A stretch of DNA of 31,269 nt from a virus, in IMG/VR virus record IMGVR_UViG_3300045988_038873, positions 1 through 31,269 of that record; one strand, written 5' to 3'. Below are positions 3,069 through 18,101 of this stretch, one piece after another. Position 1 is the stretch's first letter. The number at the start of each line of letters is the position of its first letter. The notes under the pieces are model-generated. The model was not told where the DNA came from. It did no database searches and saw only the letters and a program-made list of their open reading frames with translations. Made by a program: the position numbers and the translations under genes.

Positions 3069-3320
3069 ATGAGAAAAGAAATTGAAAAGTTGCTAGCAAG
3101 AATAAATTGGCAAATCGAAAGTAAAGAGCGCTCTCTAGAACAAGAAAAAGAATGGTTAGTTAATGAAGCACAAAGAGAAAATTTAAATTGCGTAAAGCGA
3201 AGTTGCGAAAGAATTGAACAACTTGAAAAGGAATTGTTGATTCATAAAACATACAAATACGAATTAGAAGGAATCTTAAAATGGGAGGATGAGGAAAATG
3301 AAATCACAAGAAGAAATTAG
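3069..3320 (+). CDS. Hypothetical coiled-coil early protein
   Basis: ORF 3054-3320. The ATG at 3069 lies 8 nt after GGAGG (3056-3060). Confidence 0.55.
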   Translation: MRKEIEKLLARINWQIESKERSLEQEKEWLVNEAQRENLNCVKRSCERIEQLEKELLIHKTYKYELEGILKWEDEENEITRRN

Positions 3321-3450
3321 AAAAAGACAACAAGAATATAAAGACAAAATGTTCAATAAATTCAGTAATGAATTTACAAGAAAGATTATTCTTCAAAAGC
3401 AAAATCAAATGCTTAGAGAAGAAATAGAAAGATTAAAAGCTAATCAATAA
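3298..3450 (+). CDS. Small hypothetical protein (50 aa)
   Basis: The ATG at 3298 follows GGAGGATGAGGAAA. The open frame ends at TAA 3448-3450. It is below the ORF-track size cutoff. Confidence 0.4.
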   Translation: MKSQEEIRKRQQEYKDKMFNKFSNEFTRKIILQKQNQMLREEIERLKANQ

Positions 3451-6444: not shown

Positions 6445-6980
6445 AAACAAAACTAATAGGTAACTTCATCCGAAAATCAAGAAATGAAGATGGAAACCTA
6501 GAAATAACATTTGAATTAACTGAGCCAATGTACGAAGCATACGCTCAGAACCTTGTAAAAGGGGCGTATAGCGTAGTTATAGATTCAATAAGGTATTTAC
6601 GTACGAATGAGCAAAATCGTCTTATGTGGCATTTAATTAGTGAAATATGCAAAAACGATAATGCTATGTCAAATGATACATGGGACATGTATTGTGAATT
6701 TTTGAGAATGTCAAAAGCATGGTATACATATGTTTCTGTTGTTAAAGAAGGCTATGACGAATTGTGTCGAGCGCATGGAGTTAGAGCAGTACAGGCGTTA
6801 GGTACAGAAATAAGAAATAACGGAAAAGAATTTGTTAATTGTAGAGTATTTCTAGGCTCATCACAAATGGACACAAAACAAATGGGAGTATTAATTGATT
6901 GCATATTAGATTATGCCGAACAACTAGGAATCAGTACTCAATATTATTTAGATAAAGGAATCAAGGGGGAAGAAAAATAA
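6441..6980 (+). CDS. NinB/Orf-like recombination mediator (tentative)
   Basis: The TTG start overlaps the upstream stop. The RTNEQNRLMWHLISEI segment resembles the NinB RS..QN...W motif. Confidence 0.45.
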   Translation: MKTKLIGNFIRKSRNEDGNLEITFELTEPMYEAYAQNLVKGAYSVVIDSIRYLRTNEQNRLMWHLISEICKNDNAMSNDTWDMYCEFLRMSKAWYTYVSVVKEGYDELCRAHGVRAVQALGTEIRNNGKEFVNCRVFLGSSQMDTKQMGVLIDCILDYAEQLGISTQYYLDKGIKGEEK

Positions 6981-7345: not shown

Positions 7346-7704
7346 GAGAGCAAGAAATGGCAGTAAACGTAGCAAAGCAAATTTACTTTGATGAATTCAA
7401 CTTGTTTTATCAAATTGCAGAAAGAAGCATAGGAGATACAAATTCAAAGGATGTATTTAATGAAGCGTGTACAGTTCATGATATTACCGAAGAATTTATA
7501 TATATGTTAGATGGATGTTATGACTACACAAAAGAGGGATTGTATAGGGTAGGAGTTAAAGCAATATATAAAGCATTGTACAAGCTTGATGCACCTTATA
7601 ACGATATTGAGATAAATTGCTATCTAGAATATATCGAAAAAATCATTGATGAAATCCTAAAGCAAGACGTAGTGCTTGGAGGTGAGCAAAATAGCAGTAA
7701 TTAG
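7342..7704 (+). CDS. Hypothetical protein
   Basis: The ATG overlaps the upstream stop (ATGA). 120 aa. Confidence 0.55.
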   Translation: MREQEMAVNVAKQIYFDEFNLFYQIAERSIGDTNSKDVFNEACTVHDITEEFIYMLDGCYDYTKEGLYRVGVKAIYKALYKLDAPYNDIEINCYLEYIEKIIDEILKQDVVLGGEQNSSN

Positions 7705-8449: not shown

Positions 8450-8965
8450 ATGACAAGTAAAGATATTGAATTGATTAAAGAAATGCTTCAAATGCAAGCC
8501 AAATTGGATGAAGCAATTATGAAAGAATACGGATTAACTAAAATTGATGAAGAGAAGTTGTGCTTCGCTATTCTAGATGAAGTCGGTGAGTTGACTCACG
8601 AACTCAAAGCAAATTGGTGTTGGTGGAAAAAGACTCAAGCACCGGTTGACGATAAAAAGGTTTTAGGCGAATTAGTCGATGTTTGGCATTTCGTGTTAAG
8701 TTATCAAAATAACTTTTACAATGGAACTTCCATTTGTGATAATATTGATAATTTTCTTAACGGTTGCGGATTGTATATAGAAATGATTGTCAATGAACAA
8801 ATTCCGTTATCAATTATACTTTGTGACATTATTCAATTTAAATTACATAAAGTACATGCATTAATCGCAATAACAGAATATCTTGGCTTCACAATTGAAC
8901 AAGTATATGAAGCTTATTGCGGAAAGAATAAAATCAACTATCAAAGACTAGAAAGTGGGTACTAG
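8450..8965 (+). CDS. Dimeric (all-alpha) dUTPase / MazG-like nucleotide pyrophosphohydrolase
   Basis: The ILDEVGELTHELK..WKK and ELVDVWHFVLS motifs are typical of dimeric phage dUTPases. Confidence 0.6.
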   Translation: MTSKDIELIKEMLQMQAKLDEAIMKEYGLTKIDEEKLCFAILDEVGELTHELKANWCWWKKTQAPVDDKKVLGELVDVWHFVLSYQNNFYNGTSICDNIDNFLNGCGLYIEMIVNEQIPLSIILCDIIQFKLHKVHALIAITEYLGFTIEQVYEAYCGKNKINYQRLESGY

Positions 8966-10389: not shown

Positions 10390-10401
10390 GAGGTGGCATT
10401 A

Positions 10402-10731
10402 ATAGAAATGAATTATGAAGAAGTTAAAAAGCATTTTCTATGTGAATGCCAATCGTACACATATTATGAGCAAAAGATAGCAGAGCTACAAAGGGATGAA
10501 GCTATTTATCCATTAAAAGCCGAGCTATTCTTAGCTCATGCAGATTATGCAAGAAGAATGAACTATGTAAAAGACAAATTAAGCCAACTTGATGATACGA
10601 CTCGAACAATGATTGAGTATAGATATATAAAGGGATTCAGTGCAGAAAAGACATCTAATATTGTAGGTTATGCAAGAGAAGAAATTCCAAGAAAGATAAA
10701 CAAGAATTTGAAGAAAGTGCTCACAATGTGA
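10402..10731 (+). CDS. ArpU-family / sigma-region-4-like late transcription regulator (start ATA 10402 or ATG 10408)
   Basis: C-terminal HTH (TRTMIEYRYIKGFSAEKTSNIVGYAREEIPRKINKNLKK), at the last position of the early module. AGGAGG (10388-10393) lies 8 nt before the ATA and 14 nt before the ATG. Confidence 0.6.
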   Translation: MEMNYEEVKKHFLCECQSYTYYEQKIAELQRDEAIYPLKAELFLAHADYARRMNYVKDKLSQLDDTTRTMIEYRYIKGFSAEKTSNIVGYAREEIPRKINKNLKKVLTM

Positions 10732-10740
10732 GCATTTTTT
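10719..10740 (+). terminator. Palindrome GCTCACAATGTGAGC plus T-tract (terminator of the early operon)
   Basis: Hairpin at 10719-10733 followed by TTTTTT (10735-10740), overlapping the stop codon of the regulator gene. Confidence 0.6.
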
Positions 10741-10757: not shown

Positions 10758-10833
10758 AGCAGGATAGAGCAGTAGTAGCTCACTAGTCTTATTAGCTAGA
10801 GGTCGAATGGTGCAAATCCTTCTCCTGCAACCA
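10758..10833 (+). tRNA. Initiator-like tRNA with anticodon UAU (reads AUA) and atypical D and T arms
   Basis: Acceptor AGCAGGA/TCCTGCA has six Watson-Crick pairs and an A1xA72 mismatch. Then TA, D stem GAGC/GCTC (A11:T24) and D loop AGTAGTA. Anticodon stem is CTAGT/GCTAG, with loop CTTATTA (anticodon TAT at 10790-10792). Variable loop is AGGTC. T arm is GAA(T)GG-TGCAAAT-CCTTC. A73 and CCA are encoded. Confidence 0.6.
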
Positions 10834-10917: not shown

Positions 10918-10942
10918 ACCGAGCGTTTGTCTCGGTTCTTTT
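10918..10942 (+). terminator. Rho-independent terminator
   Basis: ACCGAG-CGTTTGT-CTCGGT followed by TCTTTT. It lies 19 nt before the strong SD/ATG of the next operon. Confidence 0.7.
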
Positions 10943-10960
10943 AATAATAAGGAGGAGAAT

Positions 10961-11206
10961 ATGGATTCAAGAAAATTTCATGATTTAGCAATCAATGCAG
11001 TATTGCAAGTAAACCAAAATATTGAGGTAAGTGAAATGTTCGTTGTATGGATGTGTAAGACGCTACAGAACAATAAAGCATTAATCGGTGTACATCATTC
11101 ACCCAATTATTATGAGGTAACGTATAACGGCGATAAAAAGGAGTTATACGTTGATGAATACATCAAGAATACAAATACTTGTCTAAATGTAAATGACGCT
11201 CTATGA
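10961..11206 (+). CDS. Hypothetical protein
   Basis: The ATG follows AAGGAGGAGAAT. 81 aa. Confidence 0.55.
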   Translation: MDSRKFHDLAINAVLQVNQNIEVSEMFVVWMCKTLQNNKALIGVHHSPNYYEVTYNGDKKELYVDEYIKNTNTCLNVNDAL

Positions 11207-11226: not shown

Positions 11227-11730
11227 ATGGAGATTATTAGATTAAAAATTAATGACATTACACCTTACGAAAAGAACGCAAAGATTCATACTGAAGCACA
11301 AATTGAACAAATTAAGAAATCTATTCAAGAATTCGGCATGAATGACCCAATCGCCGTATGGGGTAAAAACAATACAATCGTTGAAGGTCATGGGCGTTTA
11401 GAAGCCTTAAAGCAATTAGGCTATACAGAAGTTGACTGTATCAGACTAGACCATTTGACAGATGAAGAAAGAAAAGCCTATACACTTGCTCACAATAAAA
11501 TCAATATGAATACAGGATTCGACATTGATTTGTTAGATGAAGAATTAGACAGTATCGAAGATATTGATATGTCTGATTTTGGCTTTACTGAGCAGGATAT
11601 TGATTGGGACAATGTAGAAGATTTAAGTGATGATTCTTATGAAGAACCTCAACATGAAATGTGGAAATGCCCTCAGTGTGGACACGTAGATAGAAAAGAA
11701 CACTTTAAAGGAGTTCGTGACAATGAATAA
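11227..11730 (+). CDS. ParB-like nuclease domain (ParB/Srx fold) protein with C-terminal zinc ribbon
   Basis: The ATG at 11227 follows AAGGGGGAT. ParBc motifs are present (I..L.INDITPYEKNAKIH, IVEGHGRLEAL). The linker is acidic, and the C-terminus has WKCPQCGH. Confidence 0.75.
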   Translation: MEIIRLKINDITPYEKNAKIHTEAQIEQIKKSIQEFGMNDPIAVWGKNNTIVEGHGRLEALKQLGYTEVDCIRLDHLTDEERKAYTLAHNKINMNTGFDIDLLDEELDSIEDIDMSDFGFTEQDIDWDNVEDLSDDSYEEPQHEMWKCPQCGHVDRKEHFKGVRDNE

Positions 11731-11742
11731 AACTACACCTAA

Positions 11743-12498
11743 TTGAAAATATTTCTAAGTGCATTAGAGGTAAAACGAGGTAAGAAACCATTATCAAGAA
11801 TCTTAGTCGAGCAAGGCATTCAAATGAAATATAACCTAATGTCTTATTACTACCTAAGAAAGAATTTAAATGACGCATATTTCATAAAAGAGAACAGTCA
11901 ATTAGTAATCATAGACAGTGGAGCGCATAGTTTCCAAAAAGGGACAAAAGTTGATTGGGTAGAATATACCAAGCAATACGCAGAATTTATCAAAGAATTT
12001 GATGAGGACAAGGTTGTAGGATATTTTGAAATGGATGTAGACAACATCTTAGGCTATGAAAAGGTATTAGAGTTAAGAAAAATATTAGAATCTGTATCTG
12101 ATAAGATTATTCCTGTATGGCATAAGAACAGAGGAATACAAGACTTCAAAGATATGTGTAAGAAATATCAAGGTAAGGTCGTAGCAATTACAGGATTCAA
12201 GAATGAAGACATTAAAGATGAACAATACATTATGTTTTTGAAATATGCAAAGAAATATAATTGTAAAGTTCATTGTCTTGGTATGACAAGAAAAAAAGTG
12301 CTTGATAGAGTGCCGTTTGATTATTGTGATTCAAGTACATGGGTACAACAATCAGTTTATGGGCGTATCAATGGGCTAGGCAAAGTATCAAGAGAAATGT
12401 CAAGGACAAATAAAGAACAAGTAATGATAGAGAATTATAAGCAATTTATGCAAATGCAAGAAAAATATGAGCAAAAATGGAGGAACGTGAATAAATAG
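11743..12498 (+). CDS. dpdA: DpdA-like DNA-guanine transglycosylase (TGT superfamily)
   Basis: VIIDSGAHSFQKG resembles the TGT DSGGFQ motif. PFDYCDSSTW resembles the second catalytic Asp region of DpdA proteins. It sits next to QueT-like and ParB-like genes. TTG start, with no nearby SD. Confidence 0.6.
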   Translation: MKIFLSALEVKRGKKPLSRILVEQGIQMKYNLMSYYYLRKNLNDAYFIKENSQLVIIDSGAHSFQKGTKVDWVEYTKQYAEFIKEFDEDKVVGYFEMDVDNILGYEKVLELRKILESVSDKIIPVWHKNRGIQDFKDMCKKYQGKVVAITGFKNEDIKDEQYIMFLKYAKKYNCKVHCLGMTRKKVLDRVPFDYCDSSTWVQQSVYGRINGLGKVSREMSRTNKEQVMIENYKQFMQMQEKYEQKWRNVNK

Positions 12499-12946
12499 AA
12501 ATAAGACGATAGCTTTTAATGCAGTAATGTGTGCATTGTATGTTGTAGCAACGACAATTAACCCAATCGGATATGGAGTATTTCAATTTAGGGTTAGTGA
12601 ATTAATGACAGTATTTCCTGTTCACTTCAAAAAAGCACGTATCGGATTGCTTTTAGGAGTAGCAATAGCAAATGCAATGAGTCCATTGGGATTTATTGAT
12701 GTATTCTGTGGGACATTAACGGCAGGATTATTGTATTACCTAATTGATAGACTACCGGTACACAATTACATTAAATACATTCTATATTCATTAGAAGTAG
12801 GATTAATTATTGGTTGGGAATTACAGTTGGTATATCATATGCCATTTGCATTAACATTCTTTACTACATTTATTCCGGAAATGATTCTATGCATTATCGG
12901 TGATTTATTAGCAAAGAAATTAAAGCATTATGTAAATATTGATTAG
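12491..12946 (+). CDS. queT: QueT-family queuosine-precursor (preQ0/preQ1) transporter, apparent ATA start
   Basis: Multi-TM protein with FQFRVSEL and GVAIANAMSPLGFIDVFCGTL motifs. The ATA at 12491 is the first codon after an in-frame TGA and lies 6 nt after GGAGGA (12479-12484). This adds KTIAFNAV to the first TM segment. Confidence 0.7.
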   Translation: MNRNKTIAFNAVMCALYVVATTINPIGYGVFQFRVSELMTVFPVHFKKARIGLLLGVAIANAMSPLGFIDVFCGTLTAGLLYYLIDRLPVHNYIKYILYSLEVGLIIGWELQLVYHMPFALTFFTTFIPEMILCIIGDLLAKKLKHYVNID

Positions 12947-12959
12947 AGGTGATAGACAC

Positions 12960-13328
12960 ATGGCAAGAAAAAAAATTATTAATCAAAAACAATTTGAAGC
13001 GTTATGTGAGATTCAATGCACAAAGGATGAAATCTGCGCCGTGTTAGATGTATCAGACAAAACATTAGACAGATGGTGTAAAGAAACATATGAAACGTCA
13101 TTCTCCGATATTTTCAGACAAAAAAGGCAAGGAGGGTGTGCAAGCCTAAGAGCGAAGCAGTGGAAACTAGCTTCAAAAAGTCCTGCTATGGCTATTTTCT
13201 TAGGAAAACAATTCCTAGGTCAAACTGATAAGGTAGAAACACATTTTGACGCTTCAGAAGTAAATGCAATTAATAAAGCTATGATTACAGATGTAGCAAA
13301 AGAAAGAAGAATTGAAGATTTTGAATAA
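12960..13328 (+). CDS. terS: Terminase small subunit
   Basis: The ATG at 12960 follows AGAGGTGA. N-terminal HTH (FEALCEIQCTKDEICAVLDVSDKTLDRW). It lies directly upstream of terL. Confidence 0.7.
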   Translation: MARKKIINQKQFEALCEIQCTKDEICAVLDVSDKTLDRWCKETYETSFSDIFRQKRQGGCASLRAKQWKLASKSPAMAIFLGKQFLGQTDKVETHFDASEVNAINKAMITDVAKERRIEDFE

Positions 13329-14646
13329 GCCTGCGCCTTTCAATCAAAAGCAATTAACTTATCTTAAAAAGACATTTGATTCATGGCTTAATGTGTTAGA
13401 AGGTGGTAAGCGTGGAGGAAAGAACGTACTCAACACATACGCTTTCTGCATTGCATTAGAAACACATCCGGATAAGTTTCATCTAATAGCAGGAACAGAT
13501 ACATCATCTGCACGTGTTAATATTGGAGATTGTAACGGATACGGCTTACAAAACTATTTTGCGAATAGATTTAAAGTTGGAAAGTATGAAGGTAAAGATT
13601 GTTATTACATCAACACAAAGGTGGGAGAAAAGGTTGTATTCTTTGCAGGCGGTGCGAAGAAAGGTTCAGAGAATGCAATACATGGTTATTCATACGGCAT
13701 GGCTTACGTTACCGAAGCGAATTTATGTTGTATAGAGTTCTTACAAGAAGTGATGGATAGAACAATAGCGTCAAGCAATCGAAAGATATTTCATGATTTA
13801 AACCCAAAAGGAAAGAATCATTGGTATTACACAGATTTCTTGAAATATCATGAGGAGCAACAGAATAAAGATTCTACATATGGTTACAACTATGGGCATA
13901 CCACCTTAGTTGACAATTATTCTTTAAGTGATGAGCAAATAAGAACGGTCTTGAAATCATACGATAAGAATAGCGTTTATTACAAAAGAGATATAAAAGG
14001 GCAAAGGGAAGAAGCCGAAGGACTTGTATTCCCTTATTTTGCTAATGACTGCAAACCTTACCTATTTAAATATCAGAGTCTAAAAGAAAAGATGAATGAA
14101 ACAGGAAAAAGGTTCAGTCATTTAATCATAGGCGTTGATTTTGGAGACAATGGCTCAAAGTATTCGTGGCACTTAACAGGGTTTACAAATGATTGGGATT
14201 ATGTGTGGGCACTTGATGAGGGAGATATGGAGAAATCAAACTCAATAGACGCAACAAAGTTTTGCAAAGCATTTGTAAGATTCTATAAGCGTTGTATTGA
14301 ATGTTACGGATATGTTGAATGGATATTTCCGGACAGTGCTTCTAATACGTTGATAAACACGCTTAGAGCTTATTTTTACGCCGAAGGATTAGACGGAAGT
14401 ATAATTGCACCGGTTAAGAAGAATGAGCTTACAGACCGCCCTATAACGGTTGATAGCTTACTTGTTACAGGTAGATTGAAGATAGAAGAACATTGTAAGA
14501 ACTTAATAAACGCATTGAGCGAATTGGTATGGGATGAAAAGAAAGACATTCCAAAAGATGAGAACGTAAACAATATCAATGATGATTGGGATTCGTTCTG
14601 CTATACATTTATCACACATAGTGGATATATAGATTTAAGGAGGTAA
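13312..14646 (+). CDS. terL: Terminase large subunit (PBSX-type)
   Basis: Walker A-like LEGGKRGGKN, a nuclease-domain-like C-terminal half, and position between terS and portal. TTG start. Confidence 0.85.
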   Translation: MKILNKPAPFNQKQLTYLKKTFDSWLNVLEGGKRGGKNVLNTYAFCIALETHPDKFHLIAGTDTSSARVNIGDCNGYGLQNYFANRFKVGKYEGKDCYYINTKVGEKVVFFAGGAKKGSENAIHGYSYGMAYVTEANLCCIEFLQEVMDRTIASSNRKIFHDLNPKGKNHWYYTDFLKYHEEQQNKDSTYGYNYGHTTLVDNYSLSDEQIRTVLKSYDKNSVYYKRDIKGQREEAEGLVFPYFANDCKPYLFKYQSLKEKMNETGKRFSHLIIGVDFGDNGSKYSWHLTGFTNDWDYVWALDEGDMEKSNSIDATKFCKAFVRFYKRCIECYGYVEWIFPDSASNTLINTLRAYFYAEGLDGSIIAPVKKNELTDRPITVDSLLVTGRLKIEEHCKNLINALSELVWDEKKDIPKDENVNNINDDWDSFCYTFITHSGYIDLRR

Positions 14647-17492: not shown

Positions 17493-18101
17493 ATAGCTAT
17501 TGAATATTTAGATAAGAGTGGACTAACGCTCTTGATTAGCAAAATTAAATCGGCGTTAGGTGGGAAAGTTGATGTCGTAAGTGGTAAAGGCTTATCGACA
17601 AATGACTATACTAGCGCAGAAAAGCAAAAATTAAGTGGTATCGCAAGTGGTGCTCAAGTGAATGTGATTGAGTCTGTAAAGGTAAATGGTACGAAATTAA
17701 CGCCAAACTCAAAAGCCGTGGATGTTACAGTGCCTACAAAGACATCACAATTAACAAATGACAGTGGATATCAGTCGGCGACGAGCGTTGAGTCAATTAT
17801 CACGGCTAAAGGGTATCAAACGCAATCACAAGTACAATCGTTGATTAATTCGGCAGTCGGTAATATTACATCTATTAGATATAAAAAGGTAACTAGCTTA
17901 CCTGCTACAGGTTCAAATGGTGTAATTTATCTGTTAGCACATTCACATGGAACACAAGATATCTATGATGAGTATATTTGGCTTTCAGAGACAAAGACAT
18001 ACGAAAAGATTGGTAATACAGACATTGATTTATCGGCGTATGTTAAGAAGTCAGAATTAACTGCGATTACTACAAATGATTTAAATACAATGTGGGGTTA
18101 G
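17493..18101 (+). CDS. Tail (or head) fibre protein, apparent ATA start
   Basis: The ATA at 17493 lies 7 nt after AGGAGG (17480-17485). This restores AIEYLDKSGLTLLISKIKSAL. The GKGLSTNDYTSAEKQKLSGI motif is typical of fibre proteins. Confidence 0.65.
   Translation: MAIEYLDKSGLTLLISKIKSALGGKVDVVSGKGLSTNDYTSAEKQKLSGIASGAQVNVIESVKVNGTKLTPNSKAVDVTVPTKTSQLTNDSGYQSATSVESIITAKGYQTQSQVQSLINSAVGNITSIRYKKVTSLPATGSNGVIYLLAHSHGTQDIYDEYIWLSETKTYEKIGNTDIDLSAYVKKSELTAITTNDLNTMWG

Follow-up and report, generated by a model that had tools for sequence, protein, structure and literature searches.

The viral sequence IMGVR_UViG_3300045988_038873, analyzed here as one window of 31 kb (~33% G+C), carries three consecutive plus-strand genes just upstream of the terminase small-subunit gene terS: a gene for a ParB-like protein (positions 11227–11730), a gene for a minimal DpdA-family transglycosylase (dpdA, 11743–12498), and queT (12491–12946), encoding an energy-coupling factor (ECF)-type S component for queuosine precursors. 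We consider it probable that the region 11227–12946 is a salvage-only cassette for 7-deazaguanine modification of DNA, for which we propose a mechanism below. An initial annotation, made from the DNA letters alone, had arrived at the same inference, which is now supported by family assignments, comparative genomics, and the absence of synthesis genes. The three genes lie where that annotation had placed them, and the motifs it had read—IVEGHGRLEAL, DSGAHSFQ, FDYCDSSTW, FQFRVSE, and ANAMSPLGFIDVFCG—are all found in the sequence.

The product of dpdA, a protein of 251 amino acids (aa), had been assigned to the TGT/DpdA family. That assignment holds through phrog_887 and profile–profile evidence, not through the TGT profile PF01702. 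The protein matches phrog_887, "queuine tRNA-ribosyltransferase," over residues 1–247 (9.9e-39), and tblastn recovers the DpdA genes of phages CAjan (E 3e-6), Seurat, BcepGomr, BRock, BCD7 (8e-21), and phiFN37 (1e-20). A family profile built from 87 diverse representatives (26–64% identity; the full search gave 1,588 clusters at 50% identity) aligned with CAjan DpdA by hhalign at 99.5% probability (E 7.8e-23), pairing DSGAH with DSGAF, PVWH with PCFH (PxxH), and CDSSTW with CDSSSW. D58-S59-G60, E96, D98, H127, and D196 are invariant in all 87 representatives. The AlphaFold2 model (pLDDT 95.5, pTM 0.92) is a TIM barrel of eight alternating strands and helices, with the invariant residues at the C-terminal ends of strands; Foldseek against BFVD returned models of phage "queuine tRNA-ribosyltransferases" (E 1e-14 to 1e-6, TM 0.6–0.77) and also DpdA2 of Vibrio phage nt-1 (3.5e-4). 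Among the DpdA homologues listed, none carries a precomputed Pfam domain, and phmmer of the protein against PDB gave no useful match. Sequence and structural evidence together place the protein, as a predicted minimal 251-aa form, in the phage DpdA family and not with bacterial DpdA.

The start of dpdA is TTG 11743, the first codon past an in-frame TAA. No Shine–Dalgarno (SD) sequence is recognizable there, and the codon lies 12 nt after the stop codon of the ParB-like gene; a start so placed and without an SD suggests translational coupling to that gene.

The upstream gene, with an ATG start preceded by GGGGGA, encodes a protein of 167 aa in which an N-terminal ParB/Srx domain, bearing GHGRLEA as its GxxRxxA box, is joined through an acidic DFGF...IDW linker to a C-terminal CPxC..H..H element. 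The ParB/Srx fold claimed for it is borne out by matches to phrog_620 (3.9e-52), TIGR00180 (3.7e-6), Noc (8e-8), and the solved ParB-domain nuclease PDB 5k5d (4e-4), as well as by the GxxRxxA box; its Pfam ParB_N score of 21.5 bits is below the 26.3 cut-off. The sole PADLOC match is to MTase_II (ParB-fused methyltransferases; 2.7e-27), in the N-terminal part of that profile, presumably its ParB-type N-terminal domain. What had been called a zinc ribbon is a conserved C-terminal H-x4-CPxC-x-H-x5-H arrangement, with two Cys plus His and not the four Cys of a ribbon. Bacterial DpdA is strictly dependent on the ParB-superfamily ATPase DpdB, which in the bacterial Dpd system carries a DGQQR (DndB/SspE-type) NTPase motif and a C-terminal helical domain (PMC10164549). 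The phage protein has neither the motif nor the domain, and the suggested DpdB-like partnership survives as analogy but not as orthology. Judged by its domain layout, the ParB-like protein is an analogue of DpdB and not an orthologue, and by that analogy we propose it as the DNA-loading/NTPase partner of DpdA.

Three related loci carry a longer ParB partner without the CPxC..H..H tail (L001 5081–6001, L032 2261–3178, and L036 5180–6004). The L001 protein, the only one of the three with domain annotation, has ParB_N fused to a GNAT acetyltransferase domain; the C-terminal sequences of the L032 and L036 partners are similar to its own.

The third gene encodes a protein of 151 aa if started at ATA, and its placement in the QueT family is confirmed by PF06177 (E 1.8e-26; 93.6 bits against a gathering score of 33.7). 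In the 139-aa open reading frame (ORF) from ATG 12527, the match spans profile positions 8–140 of 141, and the remaining N-terminal positions lie within the stretch from ATA 12491 to ATG 12527. Eight residues (Q32, R34, E37, N61, S64, P65, G67, and D70) are invariant in seven phage QueT proteins. The window protein is also related to QueT of Streptococcus phage Dp-1 (phmmer 1.1e-14; tblastn 2e-10, 33% identity). QueT matches are found in only 12 of 50,697 phage records, and the window holds no ecfA or ecfT gene. The 5′ end of queT overlaps the 3′ end of dpdA, and queT shares an operon that runs into terS.

The association of these genes was surveyed in relatives of DpdA taken from GTDB genomes (6 loci, in metagenome-assembled genomes of Acutalibacteraceae, Lachnospiraceae, Anaerobutyricum, and other Clostridia) and from IMG/VR (54 loci); loci were retrieved by query-derived peptide patterns, with relatives at 47% identity or more and near-duplicates included. 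In every one of the 55 loci whose sequence extends far enough 5′, DpdA is immediately preceded by a ParB gene, the stop codon of which often overlaps the DpdA start codon. A queuosine-precursor transporter lies 3′ of DpdA in 55 of the 56 loci with enough downstream sequence: 46 encode YhhQ/QPTR (PF02592) by phmmer, one (L040) encodes YhhQ by Pfam, 1.5 kb further downstream, and 8 encode QueT (PF06177), leaving L046 as the only locus without a transporter. The pairing of a phage-borne transporter with DpdA, described earlier as uncommon, is thus the rule in this clade, and it has precedents in Dp-1, CAjan, and phiFN37. YhhQ/QPTR and QueT are unrelated families with the same substrates; because either may occupy the one slot, the context argues strongly that the module depends on import of a 7-deazaguanine base.

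Pfam scans of essentially all window ORFs were negative for QueC, QueD, QueE, QueF, and GTP-cyclohydrolase, in agreement with the earlier observation that folE and queC/D/E/F are absent, and phmmer seeded with the synthesis enzymes of Dp-1 and CAjan detected no match either in the window or in any of 61 related loci. Among bacteria of the large intestine, queDECF is mostly missing (PMC11130926). We found no description of this conserved salvage-only triad in the literature, and megablast of the cassette against phage records gave no match.

The surroundings of the module are variable. Flanking terminases differ among loci, and in sibling phages that share a tRNA gene (described below) and terS, the content of the slot between them varies, some having no detected cassette gene there. 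Because siblings hold no module or a different one in this slot, we regard the cassette as a swappable DNA-modification unit. ParB-type proteins appear to be generic partners of the DNA-modifying enzymes in the tRNA–terS slot. In L076 (5306–7956) the slot holds a ParB_N protein, a TET-associated glycosyltransferase (TAGT), and a radical-SAM protein; in L067 (4115–6903) it holds ParB, a distant DpdA, a QueC-like protein of 290 aa, and QueT. At L040 (4581–6826), DpdA is followed by a short-chain dehydrogenase, a 276-aa protein of no named family, and YhhQ. The extra genes of L067 and L040 may serve further tailoring of the inserted base.

Several rearranged or incidental features were seen in these loci. 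A ParB–DpdA "fusion" in L042 (5800–6651) was considered as Rosetta-stone evidence and discarded: it is a deletion derivative in which the first ~36 DpdA residues are gone and DFG replaces DSG. Chimeric ORFs in Logan contigs P0122 and P0123 join the N terminus of DpdA or ParB to QueT, with junctions at short residue-level similarities between the parental proteins. All three chimeras look like deletion derivatives of the cassette from natural populations, or decaying prophages. L050, a QueT-type relative, has an Rfam match to the "salivarius-1" small RNA (72.8 bits) at 3308–3364, and L001 has a tRNA-Arg(GCG) 3′ of its cassette at 8582–8655.

The start of queT is itself unusual. In its frame, TGA 12488–12490 immediately precedes ATA 12491, and no ATG, GTG, or TTG follows until ATG 12527, a start that would remove half of the first transmembrane helix (TM1). 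An SD sequence, GGAGG, lies on the plus strand at 12479–12483, 7 nt 5′ of the ATA and within the 3′ end of dpdA. This layout (GGAGG or GGAGA, 7 nt, then ATA) is kept in L008, L009, L039, L062, and L063. The ATA also aligns with Met1 of five distant QueT proteins (L042, L049, L050, L056, and Dp-1), whereas neither nearby ATG does. Within the TGA-bearing relatives, the queT coding sequence differs by 10–18 synonymous and 0–3 non-synonymous changes per pair (pN/pS 0–0.08). The ATA start that had been suggested for the transporter is, on this SD-ATA conservation, Met1 alignment, and purifying selection, together with ATA starts elsewhere in the genome, a credible one. It leads to what we see as the window's most unusual trait.

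Starts of this kind recur along the genome. About 8–11 of the ~50 window genes have a strong SD at their boundary that can be paired with no start candidate other than ATA. SD-ATA starts lie at 7691, 12491, 14650, 17493, 21651, 23405, 24183, 25651, 28227, and 30124, with weaker ones at 6977 and 16050; ATA 10402 is ambiguous, with ATG 10408 within reach of the same SD. Seven strong SDs precede the first canonical start of a long ORF with no nearby canonical start to explain them, and ATA occurs 5–10 nt away in 7 of 7, against a background for those SDs of only 27 ATA in 540 codons. Counted by codon, ATA is SD-preceded in 13 of 892 cases, second to ATG, compared with 3 of 1201 for ATT, 1 of 400 for ATC, and 0 of 635 for TTG.

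Gene-boundary analysis and orthologue comparison were the informative tests for these starts; raw counts of "orphan" SDs across loci proved too noisy, GGAGG being found within genes as well. Alignments with portal homologues begin at residue 11–15 of the ATA-started portal protein (ATA 14650), the first canonical start of which is residue 32. In one portal homologue, 44% identical, TAGGAGGAG is followed after 4 nt by an ATG at most one codon from the position matching the window's ATA. Orthologues have ATG at the positions of the window ATAs 7691 and 6977, and the start at 17493 shows an ATA/ATG polymorphism among 95%-identical genes. Global recoding of TGA was ruled out, TGA being an ordinary stop that ends 10 of 50 window genes.

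A candidate decoder lies ~400 nt 5′ of the cassette: a plus-strand tRNA gene at 10758–10833 with anticodon UAU, which reads AUA (Rfam RF00005, 48.8 bits against a gathering score of 29). ARAGORN classifies the orthologues in L061 and L063 as tRNA-Ile(tat) and missed the gene in the window, probably because of the 1:72 mismatch together with the bulged T stem and TGC T-loop of the window clade. Orthologues are present in L008, L009, L057, L061, L063, and L067–L101 (35 further IMG/VR contigs), giving 16 distinct forms when the 3′ flank is included. Across the 10 distinct sequences aligned, three anticodon-stem pairs show compensatory changes, backing the cloverleaf; the A1·A72 mismatch is present in 10 of 10; G2:C71, C3:G70, and A11:U24 are invariant; and A73-CCA is encoded.

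By blastn against 5,426 Escherichia coli genomes, the best match of this tRNA is the metZWV initiator tRNA-fMet cluster (77.9% identity over positions 2–76; median of 4 places per genome). The phage tRNA and the E. coli initiator have in common the D arm, the variable region, the 3′ end GCAACCA, G2:C71, C3:G70, A73, and A11:U24; they differ in UAU for CAU, U37, U·G for G:C at 31:39, and A for C at position 1. The three consecutive anticodon-stem G:C pairs of the initiator are not kept: the window has A29–U41, G30–C40, and U31·G39 and other variants have G29–C41, G30–C40, and U31·G39, leaving 1–2 of the 3. The 1:72 mismatch, G2:C71, C3:G70, A73, and A11:U24 are features that we take to be initiator and formylase determinants. 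By its sequence, the tRNA is assigned as a derivative of initiator tRNA-fMet, and it is the likely decoder of the queT ATA start. The ratio of SD-ATA to SD-ATG is 0.16 in tRNA-bearing loci and 0.04 in loci without the tRNA, a fourfold difference.

A broader reading, to which we give slight preference, is that this lineage has reassigned part of initiation, with a dedicated AUA-initiator tRNA serving ~8–11 of about 50 genes, among them queT, portal, and several tail genes. Translation of the cassette and late genes would then be gated by the phage tRNA between lysogeny and lytic growth, and the ParB–DpdA–transporter set would be a mobile unit for phages of queuosine-auxotrophic gut Clostridia. 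Our literature search found no case of a natural initiator-derived tRNA with AUA starts.

In the mechanism that we propose for the cassette, the QueT S component would dock on the energizing module of a host ECF transporter and import preQ1 or preQ0, possibly queuine. The minimal DpdA would then exchange guanine in replicated, double-stranded phage DNA for the imported base. If its active site works like those of TGT and bacterial DpdA, D196 would serve as nucleophile and D58 as general acid/base, with D98 and H127 reading the base. The ParB-like protein would be an obligatory partner that brings DpdA to the DNA or activates it there in a nucleoside triphosphate-dependent manner, as DpdB does. 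The modified DNA would be packaged, shielded from host restriction. QueT would be translated from ATA 12491, probably helped by the phage tRNA(UAU). The evidence for the cassette is computational, comprising family membership, module conservation, transporter replacement, the absence of synthesis genes, purifying selection on queT, and ATA/ATG positional homology. From it we infer the substrate and inserted base, the DNA target, the role of ParB, the anti-restriction benefit, and the use of the tRNA in initiation.

A number of results weigh against this interpretation. For the transglycosylase, PF01702 gave no match at E up to 0.1, the PADLOC library (E up to 0.01) matched neither it nor QueT, and the top 50 Foldseek matches in PDB were all generic TIM barrels (E 3e-3 or worse), none of them a TGT or DpdA. 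The 251-aa protein is without the large Ins8 insertion of bacterial DpdA, and the family profile did not align significantly with PDB 7ui4, the crystallized bacterial DpdA (436-aa chain; E 0.49). Even so, that non-significant alignment pairs D58 with Asp95 and D196 with Asp256, which are the catalytic residues of bacterial DpdA (PMC10164549); from their position in the barrel, D98 and H127 would correspond to Asp130 and His181 of 7ui4. Substrate range varies within the QueT family and is unreadable from sequence (PMC11130926). ParB-domain genes are common near terS in Firmicutes phages and accompany other enzymes too; because of this, and because the ParB-like protein is not an orthologue of DpdB, its link to DpdA is one of synteny only. 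The locus counts are of non-independent events, given query-pattern retrieval, the identity floor, and near-duplicates. Finally, queT has no canonical start codon and would be poorly expressed if ATA initiation fails.

The last point bears on a reading of queT as a disabled or truncated gene, with a premature TGA at codon 8 of the ORF from ATG 12467, at best 139 aa from ATG 12527, and an ATA that is no start. A premature stop was considered first because in L062 and L063 the frame is open from an ATG eight codons upstream; model bacteria also initiate very poorly at ATA. We nonetheless rejected a pseudogene and hold the disabled-gene reading to be highly unlikely: the TGA-bearing lineage is under the purifying selection described above, SD-ATA is kept even in L062 and L063, the Met1 residues of distant QueT proteins match the ATA and neither ATG, TGA is an ordinary stop in the window, and the portal and other genes share the SD-ATA layout with orthologues that have ATG. 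If the transporter is functional, it might still be a lysogenic-conversion gene, feeding the host tRNA-queuosine pathway from the prophage independently of a DpdA that uses the host pool. The phage is temperate, queuosine-precursor salvage is important to gut bacteria (PMC11130926), and phage YhhQ is uncorrelated with any pathway group (Hutinet et al. 2019, PMC6884629). Such a role seems rather improbable to us when the transporter follows DpdA in 55 of 56 loci despite the swap of family, when queT overlaps the 3′ end of dpdA in one operon into terS with no excess of promoter-like sites in the region, and when no preQ1 riboswitch or other Rfam element was found upstream of queT, the tRNA being the sole Rfam match.

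The other two alternatives concern the partners of the transporter. Many database records name the enzyme family "queuine tRNA-ribosyltransferase," and a TGT-like enzyme might act on tRNA instead of DNA, restoring or altering Q34 during infection. This we regard as very improbable, since phage members of the DpdA family belong to phages with 7-deazaguanine DNA (PMC6884629), 9g DpdA expressed in E. coli modified plasmid DNA (PMC6884629; PMC10516641), the 251-aa barrel is too small to accommodate the large C-terminal regions seen in bacterial DpdA or TGT, and the enzyme is paired with a DNA-binding ParB-domain protein and adjoins packaging genes. The ParB-like protein might instead be unrelated to DpdA, with a packaging, partition, or nuclease role, and merely syntenic. 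Its family is common beside terS, and 20 of 35 tRNA-bearing loci of sibling phages have a ParB gene without DpdA, yet these are distant paralogues (E about 1e-26), and the single locus of this kind that was inspected, L076, has its ParB gene ahead of a different DNA-modifying enzyme, TAGT. In many loci the orthologous ParB gene (E 1e-38 against phiFN37) runs into the start of DpdA, and the strict need of bacterial DpdA for a ParB-superfamily ATPase (PMC10164549) also speaks for a functional pairing; we judge an unrelated ParB to be unlikely. A salvage-only DNA-modification cassette remains the interpretation that we favor.

The window as a whole covers, from integrase through holin, almost all of a temperate siphophage of gut Clostridia, with the integrase gene (564–1715) as the basis for the temperate lifestyle. 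After the integrase come genes for Erf, a RusA-like protein, dUTPase, and SSB, then an ORF for a small protein with weak Sigma70_r4 similarity (10393–10731; E 0.007, under the Pfam threshold), followed by the tRNA, a DUF6275 gene, and the ParB-like, DpdA-like, and QueT-like genes. The DUF6275 gene (10961–11206) has a strong SD and opens the gene run leading into the cassette. Terminator-like hairpins with T runs flank the tRNA on both sides: one at 10718–10740, directly after the ORF with sigma-70 region-4 similarity, and one at 10918–10945, just 5′ of the SD of the DUF6275 gene. Promoter-like sites in the cassette region are not in excess overall, and the plus-strand matches are weak only. 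Downstream, terS (12960–13328, plus strand; phrog_606/309 terminase small subunit; SD GAGGTGA before ATG 12960) forms the cassette boundary, terL (13312–14646) comes next, and portal, head, and tail genes and the holin complete the order. The cassette thus heads the packaging/late gene block.

For phages that carry DpdA alone, whose status has been open, these findings supply a concrete three-gene unit: an importer, a transglycosylase, and a helper of ParB type. This unit occurs widely among phages infecting gut Clostridia, bacteria that are mostly unable to make preQ0 or preQ1, and it predicts that DNA modification in gut phages depends on the community pool of queuosine precursors and that the phage S component exploits the host ECF module. 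With its 251 aa, the compact DpdA is also a candidate for biochemical work and as the basis of DNA-labeling tools. In these phages, gene callers that disallow ATA misplace the N termini of several products, those of the portal gene and queT included. If the reading of the tRNA is right, it would amount to natural start-codon reassignment by a virus-encoded, initiator-derived tRNA, adding a further level to the control of phage gene expression.

For the tRNA, the nearest known systems are engineered and organellar. Anticodon mutants of E. coli tRNA-fMet start translation at non-AUG codons, and mitochondria initiate at AUA; the likeness lies in an initiator-type body with a changed anticodon matching a non-AUG start. 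Unlike the engineered variants, the tRNA described here is natural and phage-encoded, would serve ~10 genes, and retains 1–2 of the 3 anticodon-stem G:C pairs.

For the cassette, phages reported to have 7-deazaguanine in their DNA, CAjan among them (PMC6884629, PMC7544227), offer the closest comparison. The DpdA1-type phages 9g, CAjan, and Dp-1 (PMC6884629) have a homologous transglycosylase, and the chemistry that we propose is the same: post-replicative replacement of G by 7-deazaguanine, with presumed protection from restriction. They carry folE and queC/D/E, sometimes with queF or gat-queC, whereas the window phage has none of these; their DpdA has about 306–311 aa compared with 251, and in the window clade a ParB-like gene is always found 5′ of dpdA. 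The CAjan cluster also includes a "putative preQ0 transporter." Dp-1 (gp1–gp7) is the only well-characterized isolate that we found with a QueT gene, directly adjacent to DpdA, but it also encodes QueF-like, QueC, QueD, QueE, and FolE proteins, has no ParB in the cluster, and has the order QueT then DpdA. Fusobacterium phage phiFN37 (OR492271) shares the architecture of the cassette, with a ParB-like protein, DpdA, and a "queosine precursor transporter," the ParB (1e-38) and DpdA (1e-27) being orthologous. It differs in its YhhQ/QPTR transporter, a DUF6884 gene inserted between DpdA and transporter, and an 85-kb genome, and its functions are given by automatic annotation only.

The bacterial system of Salmonella Montevideo (PMC10164549) likewise joins a TGT-fold transglycosylase, DpdA, to a ParB-superfamily NTPase, DpdB, to insert preQ0 in DNA, and the catalytic Asp residues are conserved. 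Its DpdB has DGQQR and a C-terminal helical domain in place of the GxxRxxA box and CPxC..H..H tail of the phage partner, and bacterial DpdA has the 128-residue Ins8 insertion; the window has neither this insertion nor DpdC–K restriction genes, and matches no PADLOC Dpd model. The remaining parallel is with "DpdA-only" phages such as Salmonella phage 7-11 and Mycobacterium phage Orion, in which, as in the window, DpdA occurs without genes for preQ0 or G+ synthesis. Hutinet et al. (2019, PMC6884629), whose third group these phages form, counted 76 of them, suggested reliance on the host pool or on uptake, reported YhhQ homologues in some phages, and considered it hard to predict whether DpdA-only phages are modified; their search did not include QueT. 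Compared with such phages, the module described here encodes the uptake step, conserved in 55 of 56 loci, and so forms a defined three-gene unit. Set among these systems, the cassette is a salvage-only, ParB-assisted form of 7-deazaguanine DNA modification.

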